Assembly: GCA_963705305.1 (NCBI GenBank)
Contig: OY970067.1
Span: 448,001 to 512,000, forward strand
Length of the DNA: 64,000 nucleotides
Origin: an uncultured Methylomirabilota bacterium
Lineage (GTDB): Bacteria; Methylomirabilota; Methylomirabilia; Methylomirabilales; 2-02-FULL-66-22
Reading direction: 5' to 3'
This document shows, piece after piece, positions 32,939-60,535 of this stretch. The notes beneath the pieces are model-generated. The model was not told where the DNA came from and ran no database searches. It saw only the letters and a program-made list of their open reading frames with translations. How positions within the stretch are numbered: position 1 is the stretch's first letter; each line of letters begins with the position of its first letter. The translations under genes were made by a program, and so were the position numbers.

Positions 32939-32980
32939 ACGGAACTCGGCTTACACGGCAAGGTGGCGGTCATCACTGGA
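32939..32980 (+). pseudogene. SDR N-terminal stub cut by the HUH element
   Basis: GGAGG RBS then (ACG)ELGLHGKVAVITG, a typical SDR start, ending at the element boundary. Confidence 0.55.
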
Positions 32981-34095
32981 TTAGGGGACGTGGATTAGGG
33001 GACGTTGCATTATCTGTCGAATCTCTTCATCGGCACCACCGCGGGATCGCGGCCTGCCAGTGGACAGCATGGTGGGCCCCCCGCCGGGCGGCCAGGCTGA
33101 CATTCCCCCGGGTCTGCCCGAGGGTGCGCGCGAGGGCACTCGCGGGGCGGCCGAGCACCTCCACCCAGACGTAGGCGAGGAGCTGCCGGGCGGTGACCGC
33201 CGCCCGGGTCTGGGTGTGCCCGAGGAGTACGGGGCAACGGACGCCCAGGGCGGCGGCGAGCCGGGCGGCCAGCGTCTCGAGGGGGACGCGGGAGAGCCCT
33301 CCCGGCGGCGCCCCGGTGGGGGCGGCCCCGAGGACCGCCGTGACGAACGGCCCGCTCCCGAGGATCCGCGCATCGGCCTCGACGCGGGCCCCCGGCCGGC
33401 GGGCTGCCCGGACCGCCTGCCAGCCCCCCAGGCTGCGGACCAGGCCCCCGCCCTGGAGCTCCGGGCGGTGCCCCTGGGGGAGGCCTTCTGCCACGAACTG
33501 GCGGTAGGCGGCGGGGGTCCGGGAATGGCTGGCGCCGAACTGGGCGAGCACGGTCGCCGTGTCCTGCCACGGGCGGGGGACGCTCCCGAGGAGGGCGCTG
33601 TGGCCGGTCCAGGGGTAGCGGGCCAGCGTCCGGAGGTCGGGGACGACCTGGGCCCGGATTGGGTTCAGGTGGAGGTAGCGGACCAGCTCCAGGAGGTACG
33701 GCTCTGCCTCCACGACGATGGATTTGTACCGGTTTTGGAAGAGGTGGCCCACCCGGCGGTGGCGCCGGTTGAAGGCGCCGGCGTACCCCGTGAGGAGGCT
33801 CCGCATGCTCCGGGGCAAGGGGCGCGAGCCCGTCCGGACCAGGAGGTGGGCGTGGTTCGGGAGGAGGGCCCAGGCGTAGACGGTGAGGGCCCCGCTCTCC
33901 GCGCGGGCGGCGAGCCGGGCGACGAAGTCGGCCCGGTCGGTGTCGTCCCGGAAGATCGTGGTCCGTTCGATCCCCCGCACCATCACGTGGTGGAGGGTTC
34001 CGGGGGCATCCAGCCGTGCTTGCCGCGGCATGACAACGGGATGGTAGCAAAATGTGACAGATAATGCAACGTCCCCTATTCTCATCCCCTATTCT
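32977..34095 (-). mobile_element. TIR-bounded HUH/Y1 (RAYT-like) element, copy 1
   Basis: Perfect 23-bp inverted repeats TAGGGGACGTTGCATTATCTGTC (32996-33018) and GACAGATAATGCAACGTCCCCTA (34056-34078). An apparently identical copy lies at 54021-55124. Confidence 0.9.
33027..34031 (-). CDS. Y1 HUH transposase (REP-associated tyrosine transposase-like) with C-terminal HTH
   Basis: Motifs HHVMVRG, NHAHLL (HuH), FNRRHRRVGHLFQNRYKS, YLHLNP and YPWTGH. The C-terminus LARTLGQTRGNVS is HTH-like. Confidence 0.92.
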   Translation of the reverse strand: MPRQARLDAPGTLHHVMVRGIERTTIFRDDTDRADFVARLAARAESGALTVYAWALLPNHAHLLVRTGSRPLPRSMRSLLTGYAGAFNRRHRRVGHLFQNRYKSIVVEAEPYLLELVRYLHLNPIRAQVVPDLRTLARYPWTGHSALLGSVPRPWQDTATVLAQFGASHSRTPAAYRQFVAEGLPQGHRPELQGGGLVRSLGGWQAVRAARRPGARVEADARILGSGPFVTAVLGAAPTGAPPGGLSRVPLETLAARLAAALGVRCPVLLGHTQTRAAVTARQLLAYVWVEVLGRPASALARTLGQTRGNVSLAARRGAHHAVHWQAAIPRWCR

Positions 34096-42092: not shown

Positions 42093-42219
42093 GGGGGGGT
42101 TGTTGACCACTCTGGCTCCCGGATCGGGGGGCTTCGAGTAACTCCGGCGGCGACGGAGTGTAAAGGAGGAGCCAGTTGGCCCTGGCGCAGGTCACGGTCG
42201 CCCGGTGCCTTGACAGCCG

Positions 42220-43153
42220 TAATCCGGGACGTTGCCAAGCAATTCACGGAGCGGCCGTGAGCAGTCGCTCCCACCGCGCGCGCTCCACGCGGCCGCGCGC
42301 TACCGCCTGGGACACCGCCTGGGGGGAGACCCCGAGGACGGGAGCCCGGGGCCCCGCGGGGTGCCCGCCCACCGCCACCCAGCGGGAGGCGATGCCGGCC
42401 CGGGCGCGCGCCACCGCGCCGGGGCCCCCCCGCCAGGGTGGCCCGCCCCAGACCGCCCTGGCGGCAGCCCCGGGCCGTGCGGGGCGCCCCCCGGAGGGCG
42501 GGTCTGCGGACCGGGGCGGCCGACGCCCCCGCCGGCTGCCGCTGCGCCGCAAACGCCGCCCGGCCGCGGATCCGCGCATCCCCGCGATCCGCCGCGCGCG
42601 GGCGGGGGCCGCACTGCCCAAGGCTGGTCCGCGTGTCTCGCCAGGCCCGGGGGCCCGTTCCCCCGAGCGCGCTGTGGCCGGTCCAGGGGCAGCGGGCGAG
42701 CGTCCGGAGCGCGGGCACGCCGTTCGCGCGGCGCGGGTGGAGGTGCAGGTAGCGGACGCGGTCCCGGAGGGAGGGCGCCGCCGCCACCACGAGGGCCGTG
42801 TCGCGGCTCTGGAAGAGGTGCCCGACCCGCTTCTGGCGGCGGTTGACGGCCCCGGCGGAGCCGGTCCGGAGGGACCGCATGCTCCGGGGCAGGGGGCGCG
42901 TCCCGGTCCGGACCAGGCGGTGGGCGTGGTTCGGGAGGGCCCAGGCGTAGACGGTGAGGGCCCCCTGCTCCGCCAGGGCGGCGAGGCGGACGAGGAAGTC
43001 CGTCCGATCGGTGTCGGCGCGGAAGAGCCTGGTGCGCTCGATCCCGCGCACCCTCACCTGGTGCAGCGTGTCCGGCGCCTCCAGCCGCGGCTGGCGTGGC
43101 CTGATGGAGTTGCGGCTCGCACACCTTGGTTTACTTGGCAACGTCCCGGATTA
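42220..43153 (-). mobile_element. Decayed relative of the TIR-bounded HUH element
   Basis: Inverted repeats TAATCCGGGACGTTGCCAAGCAA and TTACTTGGCAACGTCCCGGATTA (22/23 match) enclose a degenerate transposase (PRQPRLEAPDTLHQVRVRGIER...NHAHRL...YLHLHP) with deletions and frameshifts. Confidence 0.85.
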
Positions 43154-43255
43154 TATATGCACTTCAAAGACGCCGATGCTTATCCATGGCGACTCCACTT
43201 GAATCCTTACGAAAGGGACATCGGAAATAATTGATTCCTTCACGCCCTCGTATTG

Positions 43256-53456: not shown

Positions 53457-54020
53457 ATGATGCCCATCGTGCATGCACTGTTCGGCGCCGTGGTCGGTAC
53501 GTTTCGCTCGCGGATTGGTCTCCAACTTGAAATCGTGGCGCTGCGGCACCAGCTTGCACGGTCCCGCCGGTCGATCCGGCGGCCGGCGATCCGCCCCAGT
53601 GCCCGGATGCTCTAGGCATGGCTGGCCAGGCATTGGGGCCGGTGGCGCGAGGTTCTGGGCTTCGTGCAGCCGGCCACGGTGCTGGCCTGGCAACGCCGAC
53701 GGTTCCGGGAGCATTGGGTGCGGCTCAGCCGACGGATCACCCCGGGCCGCCCGGCGGCCAGCCAGGAACTCCGGACGCTGATCCGGGACATCTCGACCGC
53801 GAATCCGCGCTGGGGCTCGCCGCGAATCCAGGGGGAACTACGGAAGCTCGGGATTGCGGTGGCCAAATCCACGATCGAGAAGTATCGCATCCGCCCGTCG
53901 CGCCCCGCCTCTCCCTCCTGGAGAGCGTTCCTGCAGAATCACATGGCCGAGGTCGTCACCCTGGACTTCTTCACGGTCCCGACGGTCGGCTTCAAGGTGC
54001 TCTTCGTGCTCATCGTCCTG
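53457..54020 (+). pseudogene. rve integrase-core transposase, with an in-frame stop and truncated by HUH element copy 2
   Basis: LEIVALRHQL, in-frame TAG at 53613, VQPATVLAWQR, NPRWGSPRIQGELRKLG, and DFFTVPT...LFVLIVL ending at the element. A probable left end TGTGGTTCCTGAAAATTC lies at about 53351. Confidence 0.85.
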
Positions 54021-55124
54021 TGGATTAGGGGACGTTGCATTATCTGTCGAATCTCTTCATCGGCACCACCGCGGGATCGCGGCCTGCCAGTGGACAGCAT
54101 GGTGGGCCCCCCGCCGGGCGGCCAGGCTGACATTCCCCCGGGTCTGCCCGAGGGTGCGCGCGAGGGCACTCGCGGGGCGGCCGAGCACCTCCACCCAGAC
54201 GTAGGCGAGGAGCTGCCGGGCGGTGACCGCCGCCCGGGTCTGGGTGTGCCCGAGGAGTACGGGGCAACGGACGCCCAGGGCGGCGGCGAGCCGGGCGGCC
54301 AGCGTCTCGAGGGGGACGCGGGAGAGCCCTCCCGGCGGCGCCCCGGTGGGGGCGGCCCCGAGGACCGCCGTGACGAACGGCCCGCTCCCGAGGATCCGCG
54401 CATCGGCCTCGACGCGGGCCCCCGGCCGGCGGGCTGCCCGGACCGCCTGCCAGCCCCCCAGGCTGCGGACCAGGCCCCCGCCCTGGAGCTCCGGGCGGTG
54501 CCCCTGGGGGAGGCCTTCTGCCACGAACTGGCGGTAGGCGGCGGGGGTCCGGGAATGGCTGGCGCCGAACTGGGCGAGCACGGTCGCCGTGTCCTGCCAC
54601 GGGCGGGGGACGCTCCCGAGGAGGGCGCTGTGGCCGGTCCAGGGGTAGCGGGCCAGCGTCCGGAGGTCGGGGACGACCTGGGCCCGGATTGGGTTCAGGT
54701 GGAGGTAGCGGACCAGCTCCAGGAGGTACGGCTCTGCCTCCACGACGATGGATTTGTACCGGTTTTGGAAGAGGTGGCCCACCCGGCGGTGGCGCCGGTT
54801 GAAGGCGCCGGCGTACCCCGTGAGGAGGCTCCGCATGCTCCGGGGCAAGGGGCGCGAGCCCGTCCGGACCAGGAGGTGGGCGTGGTTCGGGAGGAGGGCC
54901 CAGGCGTAGACGGTGAGGGCCCCGCTCTCCGCGCGGGCGGCGAGCCGGGCGACGAAGTCGGCCCGGTCGGTGTCGTCCCGGAAGATCGTGGTCCGTTCGA
55001 TCCCCCGCACCATCACGTGGTGGAGGGTTCCGGGGGCATCCAGCCGTGCTTGCCGCGGCATGACAACGGGATGGTAGCAAAATGTGACAGATAATGCAAC
55101 GTCCCCTATTACGTCCCCTATTAC
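54021..55124 (-). mobile_element. TIR-bounded HUH/Y1 element, copy 2
   Basis: Same TIRs and, by eye, the same internal sequence as copy 1. Confidence 0.9.
54057..55061 (-). CDS. Y1 HUH transposase (same protein as 33027-34031)
   Basis: Identical 334-aa translation. Confidence 0.92.
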   Translation of the reverse strand: MPRQARLDAPGTLHHVMVRGIERTTIFRDDTDRADFVARLAARAESGALTVYAWALLPNHAHLLVRTGSRPLPRSMRSLLTGYAGAFNRRHRRVGHLFQNRYKSIVVEAEPYLLELVRYLHLNPIRAQVVPDLRTLARYPWTGHSALLGSVPRPWQDTATVLAQFGASHSRTPAAYRQFVAEGLPQGHRPELQGGGLVRSLGGWQAVRAARRPGARVEADARILGSGPFVTAVLGAAPTGAPPGGLSRVPLETLAARLAAALGVRCPVLLGHTQTRAAVTARQLLAYVWVEVLGRPASALARTLGQTRGNVSLAARRGAHHAVHWQAAIPRWCR

Positions 55125-55192
55125 TCCACGATTAGATCAGGTCGGACGCCGAGGATATGTCGGTCGAAGGCGGCAGATTGCAATTTACAGAA

Positions 55193-55233
55193 GGCCAGCG
55201 AGAGGCCTTCCTCAAGAAGCGCTCTCTCTGGCC
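55193..55233 (-). terminator. Hairpin downstream of the ABC binding-protein gene
   Basis: Imperfect stem GGCCAGCGAGAG...CTCTCTCTGGCC. Confidence 0.4.
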
Positions 55234-55278
55234 CACTCCGTTGCCGTAGGCCTCTCGAAGTCAACCGAGCATCTGCGA

Positions 55279-56559
55279 TTACTGGGCGCCGAGGGCTCGG
55301 TTGGCCGCGAGGTGCGCGTCATGCAAGGCTTGCTCGGGTGTCTTCACACCCGTGAAGGCCTCCTGGACCGCCGTGATGACGGCGTCCCCGATCTTCGGCC
55401 ACTCCGGGATGCGCGGGTCCAGCTTCACGAACGGGGTCTGCGCGGTGTAGACCTTCGCGAACTTGTCGTTTCGCATCTCCGGCCCGTTCTTGACGTCGAG
55501 GCGGGCCGGCAGGACGCCGGCGATCTTGTAGTCCATCAACTGCACGTCGTGGCTGTACCAGGCCTTGTAAACCTTCCAGGCAGCCTCGGGGTTCTTGGTG
55601 AAGGCGCTGATGACGAACACGCCGTACTCGACCGCTGTCACCTTCTTCTTGCCGACCGGAACCGGCGCAGCACTCAGCACCTCATGGGCTTTCAGGTTCG
55701 GGTTGAGCGCATTGATGATCCGCCAGGACTGCGGGACCGCGATGACCATGGAGACCTTCTCGAACGCCATTTGCGTCCGGACCTCCTGCGCTCCCTGCTC
55801 GACCACCCCCGGCGGGACCACCTTGTGCTTCGTGAACAGCTCGACGTAGAATTTGAAGCCCTCCAGCGCCTCCGGCGTGTCGAGCGCGGAGTGCTTCTCG
55901 TCCGGGGTGAGGTACTCTGCGCCCGCCCCCCAGAAGAGCGGGTTGAAGCGGAGGAATAGTCCTTCCTGGCGGGCGCCGATGAGGCCCACGCCGTACCGGG
56001 AGCCCGTCGTCAACTTCGTCGCATCCGCGATGAACTGGTCCCAGGTGGCCGGCGGCTTGGTCGGGTCGAGCCCCACCGCCTTGAAGTGGGCGGTGTTGTA
56101 GAGCAGCGCCATGGGGTTCACGTACTCGGGAATGCAGTAGATCTTTCCCTTGTACTTGCACACCTCGAGCGCGGCCTGATCGAACTGCGCCAGGAACTTT
56201 TGGCCGCCCTCCTTTGCGATGAACGGATCGAGGGCCAGAAGATAGCCGCGCTCCGCGAAGAACGGGATGGGCCGCTGGGTAAACTGCGCGAGGTCGGCCG
56301 CAGCCTTGGCCTGGGACTGCGCCGTGTAGACGGTTTCCTTGTCGGCGTACCGGCTCTCGTCGCGGACGACCTCGATGCCGGGATTGGCCTTGTTGAACTC
56401 CTGCTGGAAGTTTTCAAAAACGTGCACCGTGGGCGTCTCTCCCCAGTGCCAGCTCTGGAATCGGATCTTCACTTGGGCCGCGGCAGGGCAGGCGGAGACG
56501 ACGAGGAAGAGGGTGAGCAGCATGAGAACGAGGGACAACCAGCGCCGGTTCCGCTTCAC
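55279..56559 (-). CDS. ABC sugar-type substrate-binding protein
   Basis: GTG start after an AGGAGG RBS, signal peptide, FNKANPGIEV, YNTAHF..GLDP.KPPATWD and TPEQAL. Confidence 0.9.
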   Translation of the reverse strand: MKRNRRWLSLVLMLLTLFLVVSACPAAAQVKIRFQSWHWGETPTVHVFENFQQEFNKANPGIEVVRDESRYADKETVYTAQSQAKAAADLAQFTQRPIPFFAERGYLLALDPFIAKEGGQKFLAQFDQAALEVCKYKGKIYCIPEYVNPMALLYNTAHFKAVGLDPTKPPATWDQFIADATKLTTGSRYGVGLIGARQEGLFLRFNPLFWGAGAEYLTPDEKHSALDTPEALEGFKFYVELFTKHKVVPPGVVEQGAQEVRTQMAFEKVSMVIAVPQSWRIINALNPNLKAHEVLSAAPVPVGKKKVTAVEYGVFVISAFTKNPEAAWKVYKAWYSHDVQLMDYKIAGVLPARLDVKNGPEMRNDKFAKVYTAQTPFVKLDPRIPEWPKIGDAVITAVQEAFTGVKTPEQALHDAHLAANRALGAQ

Positions 56560-60189: not shown

Positions 60190-60360
60190 GAAATGCAATG
60201 CGGTGCACGACACCGGCCGCGTCCAGCCGTGCGCGTCTCGGCATTATCCCCCATTGCCACAGCACCAGACAAGCTCTCGGCTTTCTTTTTTACCAGCGCC
60301 CGTCTTTTCTATGAGTGGTGTCGATGGGAAGATTCGACAGATAATGCAACGTCCCCTATT
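60190..60360 (-). mobile_element. Orphan end of the HUH element family with a transposase start stub
   Basis: GACAGATAATGCAACGTCCCCTATT at 60336-60360 is identical to the intact ends. MPRRARLDAAGVVH starts at 60244. Confidence 0.8.
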
Positions 60361-60535
60361 ATGGGAGGACCCGTTGTTTACGACCGTGTGAAGCCTCGCG
60401 GAAAGGTCGCACGGGGCGGAGGGGTTCTTATTTAGGCTGCCTCTCGGGAGAGGACCGGCTCTTTGCGTTTGGAGGAGCGCTACCGCCATAGATTAGGGTA
60501 GCCCGTGAGCAACGTTTCGCGGTATCCTAGGCGCC

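Follow-up and report, generated by a model that had tools for sequence, protein, structure and literature searches.

A recently duplicated TIRtron and the modular organization of its ends in a Methylomirabilota genome

We analyzed a stretch of 64,000 nucleotides (nt) from an uncultured Methylomirabilota bacterium (GenBank assembly GCA_963705305.1, contig OY970067.1, genome positions 448001-512000; hereafter the window, whose own numbering is used unless genome positions are stated), which contains two identical copies of an element encoding an HUH/Y1 tyrosine transposase between perfect terminal inverted repeats (TIRs). The genome is a single contig of 5.65 Mb with 66% G+C. We are highly confident that the element belongs to the TIRtrons; the class is already described in print, and the element is a further TIRtron, recently duplicated. 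Di Nocera, De Gregorio and Rocco (2013, BMC Genomics 14:522, PMC3733652; this and the other papers are cited from excerpts) found genes resembling those of REP-associated tyrosine transposases (RAYTs) between long inverted repeats and not between repetitive extragenic palindromes (REPs), and named these units TIRtrons, which encode TIR-associated tyrosine transposases (TIRYTs). In the classification of Quentin, Siguier, Chandler and Fichant (2018, BMC Genomics 19:475, PMC6006769), 20 of 26 TIRYTs fall in TnpA-Y1 subclass 2.1, and subgroup 2.1.2, which carries a Bac_DnaA_C-like tail, is equated by the authors with TIRYTs. The novelty implied by an initial annotation of the window, made from the sequence alone, has to be given up, since the class had been named and surveyed in these two papers; the element matches an already characterized insertion sequence (IS) family in its description, not in its biochemistry. 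Taken alone the element is an ordinary finding, the class having been named in 2013 (PMC3733652). What is added here to the known class is the modular build of the ends, with a head found across phyla followed by 8-9-nt direct repeats, and the duplications of the head. We consider it rather probable that this is a TIRtron with modular ends, in which a helix-turn-helix (HTH) domain would dock on the direct repeats and the HUH/Y1 domain would cut at the head, the unit being copied elsewhere.

The two copies, 32990-34080 and 54020-55110, lie 21 kb apart and show zero differences over 1,091 bp. Their perfect 23-nt inverted arms, TAGGGGACGTTGCATTATCTGTC, were located at 32996-33018 and 34056-34078 in copy 1 and at 54026-54048 and 55086-55108 in copy 2. 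Each copy holds one gene on the minus strand, coding for a protein of 334 amino acids with the N-terminus MPRQARLD. When the open reading frames inside the element were compared with Pfam, no second supported gene was found, and hence no tnpB. The flanks of copy 1 are unrelated to those of copy 2 on both sides, and their comparison revealed no direct target duplication at either copy. On all these points (identical copies with perfect 23-bp TIRs, different flanks, no target-site duplication, no tnpB) the initial annotation was right. Its limits, 32977-34095 and 54021-55124, gave the correct places and took in extra tandem heads of 12-14 nt that lie outside the shared unit of 1,091 bp. These head-segment duplications differ between the two copies. 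The features of both copies are as follows.

32977-32990, plus strand: one more tandem copy of the left head (14 nt, TGGATTAGGGGACG), in copy 1 only; exact, period 14, abutting the start of a truncated SDR-type dehydrogenase gene
32991-33018, plus strand: left inverted repeat, on the 3' side of the gene; head 32991-33004, ending GGGGACG, inner part 33005-33018, perfect 23-nt arm 32996-33018
33027-34031, minus strand: TIRYT gene, 334 amino acids; RAYT-like HUH/Y1 N-terminal part, linker, DnaA-domain-IV-like HTH C-terminal part
34041-34049, minus strand: TGCTACCAT, putative extended -10-like motif (TGnTAnnnT), read by eye
34056-34082, minus strand: right inverted repeat, on the 5' side of the gene; inner part 34056-34069, head 34070-34082
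34083-34095, minus strand: one more tandem copy of the right head (13 nt), with one mismatch, in copy 1 only
54021-54048, plus strand: left inverted repeat of copy 2, directly abutting a truncated rve-type IS transposase gene (53664-54019)
54057-55061, minus strand: TIRYT gene of copy 2, identical to that of copy 1
55086-55123, minus strand: right inverted repeat of copy 2; repeat 55086-55111 and a perfect tandem second 12-nt head, 55112-55123

Two other units bounded by such repeats, one decayed and one miniature, recur in the genome. The window contains a copy of the first, as well as a solo remnant of the element's own repeat family.

42219-43154, minus strand: degenerate relative of 936 bp with its own inverted repeats, TAATCCGGGACGTTGCCAAG...; its gene is decayed (no start codon, internal loss, NRY changed to SRD)
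60316-60362, minus strand: solo left-end remnant of the same family as the element; it keeps the head, the inner repeat and some 20 nt from inside the element

A 99.9% identical copy of the 936-bp relative was found at genome positions 1845258-1846193 and a partial one at 938008-938601, with different flanks; this relative was probably mobilized in trans as a non-autonomous derivative. The miniature element, of 215 bp, occurs in three copies (genome 3156915-3157125, 4911110-4911320 and 4919456-4919665), with two partial ones at 356557 and 1132775. One of its ends matches the repeat of the element (…GGGGACGTTGCATTATCTGTC) and the other is a variant (…GGGACGTAGCATTATTTGTA); these paired copies look more like miniature inverted-repeat elements than REPINs. 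The 1,091-bp element (two copies), the 936-bp relative (two and one partial) and the 215-bp miniature (three and two partial) all sit at unrelated sites, their identity ends at the outer edge of the repeats in each case, and target duplication is absent at all seven full copies. The identity of the two copies of the element stops at the repeats and does not run beyond them as a larger duplication, in line with the recent mobility as a unit that the initial annotation had proposed. It is very probable, as judged from these sequence comparisons, that the repeat-bounded unit moved as an element, and probable that its own protein did the moving. The element is likely to be autonomous. Since decayed and miniature units also recur, the protein probably acts on ends in trans as well.

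The gene product is predicted to be a RAYT-like HUH/Y1 single-strand nuclease-ligase fused to an HTH resembling DnaA domain IV. The HUH motif is H60-A-H62 and the tyrosine helix reads ...ELVRY119LHLNP. In an alignment of 60 sequences, H60, H62, Y112 and Y119 were invariant. Of the two tyrosines, Y112 precedes Y119, the presumed catalytic one, by seven residues in the same predicted helix, and might be a further catalytic residue as in two-tyrosine HUH enzymes. Pfam detected Y1_Tnp (2e-6) and, below its threshold, Bac_DnaA_C (0.011), and the NCBIfam model for REP-associated tyrosine transposases (REP_Tyr_transpos) matched at 3.4e-16 with 59 bits, under its cut-off of 80 bits. Between the HUH/Y1 part and the C-terminal HTH (about residues 250-330) lies a linker with the conserved motifs RPELQGGGL and DERILG. 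With profiles of the relatives the match to DnaA domain IV improved to an E value of 4.4e-4, and a profile compared with solved structures found domain IV of DnaA from four species, at E values between 5e-6 and 1.2e-4, and also 4er8, the TnpA-REP of E. coli, at 0.0071. Profiles were required for this, as a single-sequence search of solved structures gave no match. An AlphaFold model of the 334-residue protein reached a mean pLDDT of 90.9. Its best match among solved structures was 4er8 (E 8.4e-6, TM 0.73 on the target), followed by the TnpA proteins of ISDra2, IS200 and IS608, and its C-terminal part matched the DNA-binding domain of DnaA, 3pvp (TM 0.68). Pfam, profiles and model thus agree on the Y1 HUH protein with a C-terminal HTH that the initial annotation had recognized. 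A two-copy complex prediction scored 0.00 with controls not run and carries no weight for or against a dimer. The protein family is large, with 34,099 representatives (50% clustering) at E ≤0.001 and 1,272 at ≤1e-30, most of about 330 amino acids.

Searching the genome with tblastn, we found 12 full-length or near-full-length paralogous loci at 45-65% identity, besides the second identical copy and many fragments; one of the 12 has no start and another a shifted tail. All ten paralogous loci that were measured have an inverted repeat pair of their own. A genome scan gave 114 repeat ends in 14 families, counted in an A/T-filtered set because a looser pattern was swamped by chance matches and by an unrelated 28-copy IS. 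The repeat family of the element accounts for 21 of these ends: four on the two copies, one on a 91% partial copy, six on the three 215-bp miniatures, two on partial miniatures and eight solo. The absence of a REP/REPIN array, as stated in the initial annotation, holds beside the copies and fails genome-wide, given these 114 ends and the 21 of the element's own family.

To describe the ends, we aligned them at their conserved motif. They consist of an outer head of 11-14 nt ending GGGGACG, followed by a variable, A/T-rich inner part of about 14-20 nt. In ten paralogue pairs of this genome, the inner part matched itself at lag 9 with a score of 0.50, versus 0.22-0.29 at other lags, and 0 of 2000 shuffles reached 0.50. 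For comparison, 80 foreign loci from several phyla were taken, of which 11 had flanks that were too short and 69 were scored; the nearest come from Methylomirabilia/Methylomirabilota metagenome bins. A repeat pair headed GGAC[GA] was present at 54 of the 69, and with a looser scan several of the 15 loci without a pair do show GGGACG-headed repeats. At the foreign ends, position -6, which the search pattern did not force, was G in 97%; position +1 was T in 72% and +5 was T in 87%. The self-match of the foreign inner repeats peaked at lag 8 (0.40). The head/inner junction in the right repeat of the element lies 38 nt from the start codon, as it does in 6 of 10 paralogues measured; at the foreign loci the commonest distance is 51 nt.

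These periodicities indicate, as far as sequence can tell, that the inner part consists of a pair of direct repeats spaced by about the length of a DnaA box (9 nt in this genome, 8 nt in most other lineages). A single domain IV binds one DnaA box, a 9-mer, and two tandem units would suit two such domains or one domain reading twice. Across 62 loci, inner-repeat distance correlated with the distance of the C-terminal domain (r 0.49) and with that of the N-terminal domain (r 0.36); in partial correlations over the same loci the C-terminal domain kept 0.37 (0 of 2000 permutations) and the N-terminal domain 0.08 (23 of 2000). Because of the 8-9-nt periodicity and this co-variation, we think it reasonably probable that the DnaA-like HTH reads the direct repeats, which lends indirect support to the earlier proposal that the C-terminal HTH may bind the TIR. 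When folded, neither strand of either end formed a significant hairpin (z +0.86, +0.56, +0.55 and -1.23), which agrees with the initial view of a TIR-bounded HUH element and not one of the IS200/IS605 hairpin type.

The heads themselves bear what may be footprints. Of the four ends of copies 1 and 2, three carry a tandem repetition confined to the head segment, of 14, 13 (one mismatch) and 12 nt, which stops exactly at ...ACG. In the whole genome, the head 9-mer is repeated within 30 nt outside at 10 of 114 ends, versus 188 of 20,000 random places. Eight of these ten ends belong to the element's 21-end family, and six are tandems of 11-14 nt ending ...ACG. The foreign ends behaved similarly: of 108 ends, 23 had a second GGAC[GA] no farther than 30 nt outside, with four perfect tandems (12-14 nt) and three near-perfect ones, and under a looser pattern an outside duplicate was seen at 31 of 108 ends versus 380 of 5,000 control windows. 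A second class of duplication comprises the head and 5-11 nt of the inner part (8-11 nt in foreign loci). Since the head alone is often duplicated in tandem, its two edges can be read as break-and-join sites, and the outer boundary of the head and the ...ACG/N junction appear to be the likeliest sites of breakage and joining. That the cut falls exactly after GGGGACG is a tentative proposal, to which we give slightly less than even weight.

Altogether, these results suggest a series of steps. The C-terminal domains would first dock on the double-stranded direct repeats and so set the end specificity of each paralogue. Docking would then position the conserved HUH/Y1 domain on the conserved head, where it would break and rejoin one strand through a 5'-phosphotyrosine link to Y119. 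The two ends would be cut on opposite strands, because they are inverted; IS200/IS605 elements cut one strand twice. Finally, the unit enclosed by the repeats would be copied elsewhere with no target duplication, as would any other DNA flanked by two ends of this kind. A bolder reading, possible in our opinion and on the unlikely side, is that TIRtrons use a chemistry of transposition so far undescribed among HUH enzymes. The DnaA-like module would read two iteron-like 8-9-bp repeats as double-stranded DNA and aim Y1 at GGGGACG on opposite strands, so that both strands would be processed in a layout nearer that of the Rep protein of adeno-associated virus (AAV) than that of IS608. The exact head duplications would be its footprints. 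The same proteins would move the miniatures and perhaps also gene cassettes enclosed by solo ends of like strand; the toxin-antitoxin arrays near 4.32 and 4.38 Mb, described below, are examples of that layout.

Several results weigh against the mobile TIRtron with HTH docking and cutting at the head, and they are gathered here. A sole cut after GGGGACG would leave the heads behind, yet both copies carry heads, so that a second cut or another route is needed. The second class of duplication is not explained by a single fixed nick, and we derived no one mechanism that gives both classes and carries the heads along. The co-variation of repeats and C-terminal domain could in part reflect rate, this domain being fast (mean distance 0.72 versus 0.43) and the repeats fast too. 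IS608 is known to depend on the lagging strand; among 90 solo repeats, with origin and terminus placed by GC skew only, we found no replication-strand bias (47 leading; 15 of 34 non-tied clusters leading by majority), hence no sign of an IS608-type dependence. Moreover, no clean insertion site could be reconstructed, since neither pair of flanks restores an interrupted gene. Copy 1 adjoins the first 14 or so codons of the dehydrogenase gene, of which a paralogous intact gene starts from genome position 1725924, and copy 2 adjoins on its left the N-terminal part of the rve-type IS transposase gene; the missing halves of both were found neither across the element nor anywhere in the genome. Deletion or recombination followed or accompanied insertion at both copies. 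As to distribution, the family is present in 18 of 18 same-genus genomes searched, with 1-25 diverged matches each and a nearest non-self relative at 78% identity, and only 25 of 72,556 plasmid records carry it, none covering 80% of the protein. This looks closer to long-resident RAYT-type genes than to a typical invading IS. TIRYTs are abundant, yet the full-text literature searched reports no biochemistry of any of them and no way in which they cut or move DNA. Lastly, the head seen here, GGGGACG(T/C) (GGGGACGT), fits the GGGGWSAS motif common to 'some' published TIRs (PMC3733652) at positions 1-6 and differs from it at positions 7-8; being shared by 'some' TIRs, the motif is not obligatory.

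Part of this evidence would be expected from a resident, RAYT-like 'domesticated' system that is kept vertically, whose dispersed repeats serve the host and whose two identical copies are the product of a segmental duplication, of gene conversion or of recombination between older copies. The diverged matches throughout the genus, the rarity on plasmids and the scrambled flanks with their missing gene halves speak for it, as does the housekeeping-like behavior of classic RAYTs (Bertels et al. 2017, PMC5581495). We nevertheless judge it improbable: the copies lie 21 kb apart in unrelated surroundings and cease to be identical no more than a few bases from the repeat ends on both sides, the 936-bp derivative and the 215-bp miniature show the same at sites megabases apart, and gene conversion would require older, diverged copies at both sites.

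Another possibility is an IS200/IS605-like, single-strand 'peel and paste' mode, in which the inverted ends would pair as a panhandle mimicking a hairpin and the DnaA-like domain would target forks or origins and not the ends. The catalytic domain has the IS200/RAYT fold, no target duplication is present, and fork targeting by the tail was suggested by Quentin et al. (2018, PMC6006769). The 8-9-nt direct periodicity of the inner repeats and their co-variation with the C-terminal domain argue against it, as does the lack of strand bias of the solo ends. Furthermore, any one strand offers the head motif only once, the two ends having it on opposite strands. We regard this mode as quite improbable. 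That the repeats belong to a DDE-type element, or are moved by a transposase from elsewhere with the Y1 gene as passenger, is very improbable: terminal inverted repeats are a hallmark of DDE IS and other IS do exist in the genome, including the rve-type one beside copy 2, whereas in foreign loci of several phyla the same head borders genes of this family, with a favored distance to the start codon, repeats and protein vary together, and the unit contains no DDE gene and has no copy with a target duplication. An assembly artefact, with one real copy and the second from a mis-join, deserves hardly any weight, since both copies sit in unique flanks within one contig and differ in their terminal head duplications, and independent multi-copy derivatives of the family exist, even though the public contigs on copy 1 are short.

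These public contigs, assembled from three sequencing runs, gave only short, low-depth pieces against copy 1; none of them bridged a junction with at least 31 letters on both sides, and no joints were seen. One contig of 176 nt, from run X1, equals 33906-34080 with no difference and beyond that point runs on into sequence flanking the 91% partial copy, at about 945.5 kb of the genome. It hints at a strain with an identical copy at the ~945.5-kb site, and as one low-depth contig is no more than a lead. Used to look for an empty site in 30 related genomes, the left flank of copy 1 gave just short, weak matches (30-52 nt, E values from 7e-5 to 1e-3) in four of them, and no match could serve as such a site. 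On the right side of copy 2, the fragment 55121-55264 resembles by eye the end of an HNH endonuclease gene, and 55258-55800 is 98% identical to genome 731671-732213.

Upstream of the gene, the motif TGCTAYNNT was found at the same place before the start codon, after the inner repeat, in the close paralogues that were read, with no formal count. If it acts as a -10 element, it would give a nearly leaderless mRNA from a promoter under the control of the repeat-binding protein. On the gene strand a promoter scan passed over this motif, and its one call was a plus-strand site facing outward, 34054-34082, which spans the right repeat; we rely on neither. A general outward promoter in solo repeats was considered and dropped, as other families show no hexamers by eye.

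Some further repeats were noted in the genome. An unrelated high-copy element, with about 28 identical copies (27-28 sites, for instance genome 124711 and 748483), contains GGGACGTAG and is probably an active IS of another family. A solo end of another small family (…ATAATCCGGGACGTAGGTTCTAAAACAAC) lies at about 22550 of the window (genome 470550, minus strand), with relatives at genome 228065 and 2418253. At genome 4320761-4340089 and 4383167-4392691, solo ends of two families form runs, on one strand per run and spaced by 0.3-2 kb, which alternate with small toxin-antitoxin-like pairs (HicB-, MazF/PemK-, nucleotidyltransferase/HEPN- and DUF433-like, by eye). The layout of these 4.32- and 4.38-Mb runs looks like that of a cassette array.

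This genome amounts to a natural experiment, with a dozen diverged pairs of protein and ends, solo and miniature derivatives, an identical pair and repeated footprints. It lends itself to finding out which strand is cut and where, and whether end specificity comes from the DnaA-like domain. Should the modular reading hold, TIRYTs would be small enzymes that join a double-strand reader to a single-strand nuclease-ligase and could be re-targeted by domain swap.

Three identities were tried for the element and rejected. It is not an IS200/IS605 member, as judged by the fold z-scores, which give no subterminal hairpins, and by its perfect inverted ends. It is not a classic REPtron, its flanking repeats not being GTAG-tagged palindromes, nor a DDE insertion sequence, its only supported gene being Y1/HUH and target duplication being found at none of the seven full copies.

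Among known systems, TIRtrons share with this element a RAYT-like Y1 gene with long inverted repeats instead of REP palindromes. In both, a GGGG-type motif opens the repeats, whose spacing from the gene is fairly constant, and the repeats also occur solo, paired or clustered, each family being matched to its own gene; Di Nocera et al. speak of 'moderately abundant families of TIRs', single, paired or clustered (PMC3733652). The present genome differs by its unusually large set (12 paralogous loci, 114 ends) and by one exactly duplicated copy, and the 8-9-nt direct repeats and head duplications are not among the features described for TIRtrons in the excerpts. Subgroup 2.1.2, to which the element was matched by domain content, has the same long RAYT-like protein with a C-terminal Bac_DnaA_C-like HTH and no REP nearby. 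Its authors doubt that the tail reads the repeats, as these are unlike DnaA boxes, and propose that it may target the replication fork (PMC6006769), whereas the periodicity and co-variation found here argue for reading of the repeats.

REPtrons, in which RAYT/TnpA-REP goes with REP/BIME or REPIN repeats, resemble the element in that 4er8 is the closest solved fold of its catalytic domain, that the gene is framed by inverted copies of a dispersed repeat, and that a genome holds several paralogues, each with its own repeat family. Unlike theirs, the repeats here are non-palindromic, not self-complementary and free of the GTAG tag, and start with GGGGACG; the protein has an extra, predicted double-strand DNA-binding domain, and the element a duplicated copy, which is rare for classic RAYTs. 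IS200/IS605 elements (IS608 and ISDra2 TnpA) have in common with it the HUH/Y1 fold and chemistry and the absence of target duplication. They differ by subterminal hairpins instead of inverted ends and by a protein of about 130-155 amino acids, versus about 334 with an HTH here; the present element has no tnpB, and its two ends carry the conserved motif on opposite strands.

HUH initiators cut origins beside iterons, as do Rep of rolling-circle plasmids and of geminiviruses and, with its binding element and terminal resolution site, AAV Rep; in AAV, the direct-repeat binding site and the nick site lie inside the inverted terminal repeats. These origins resemble the ends described here in layout only, a double-strand site of short direct repeats beside a conserved nick site. 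They belong to a different HUH lineage, the TIRYT has no helicase domain, and there is no evidence of episomal replication. By analogy, the closest working model for the element is an HUH initiator beside iterons, and its closest relatives are the RAYTs.

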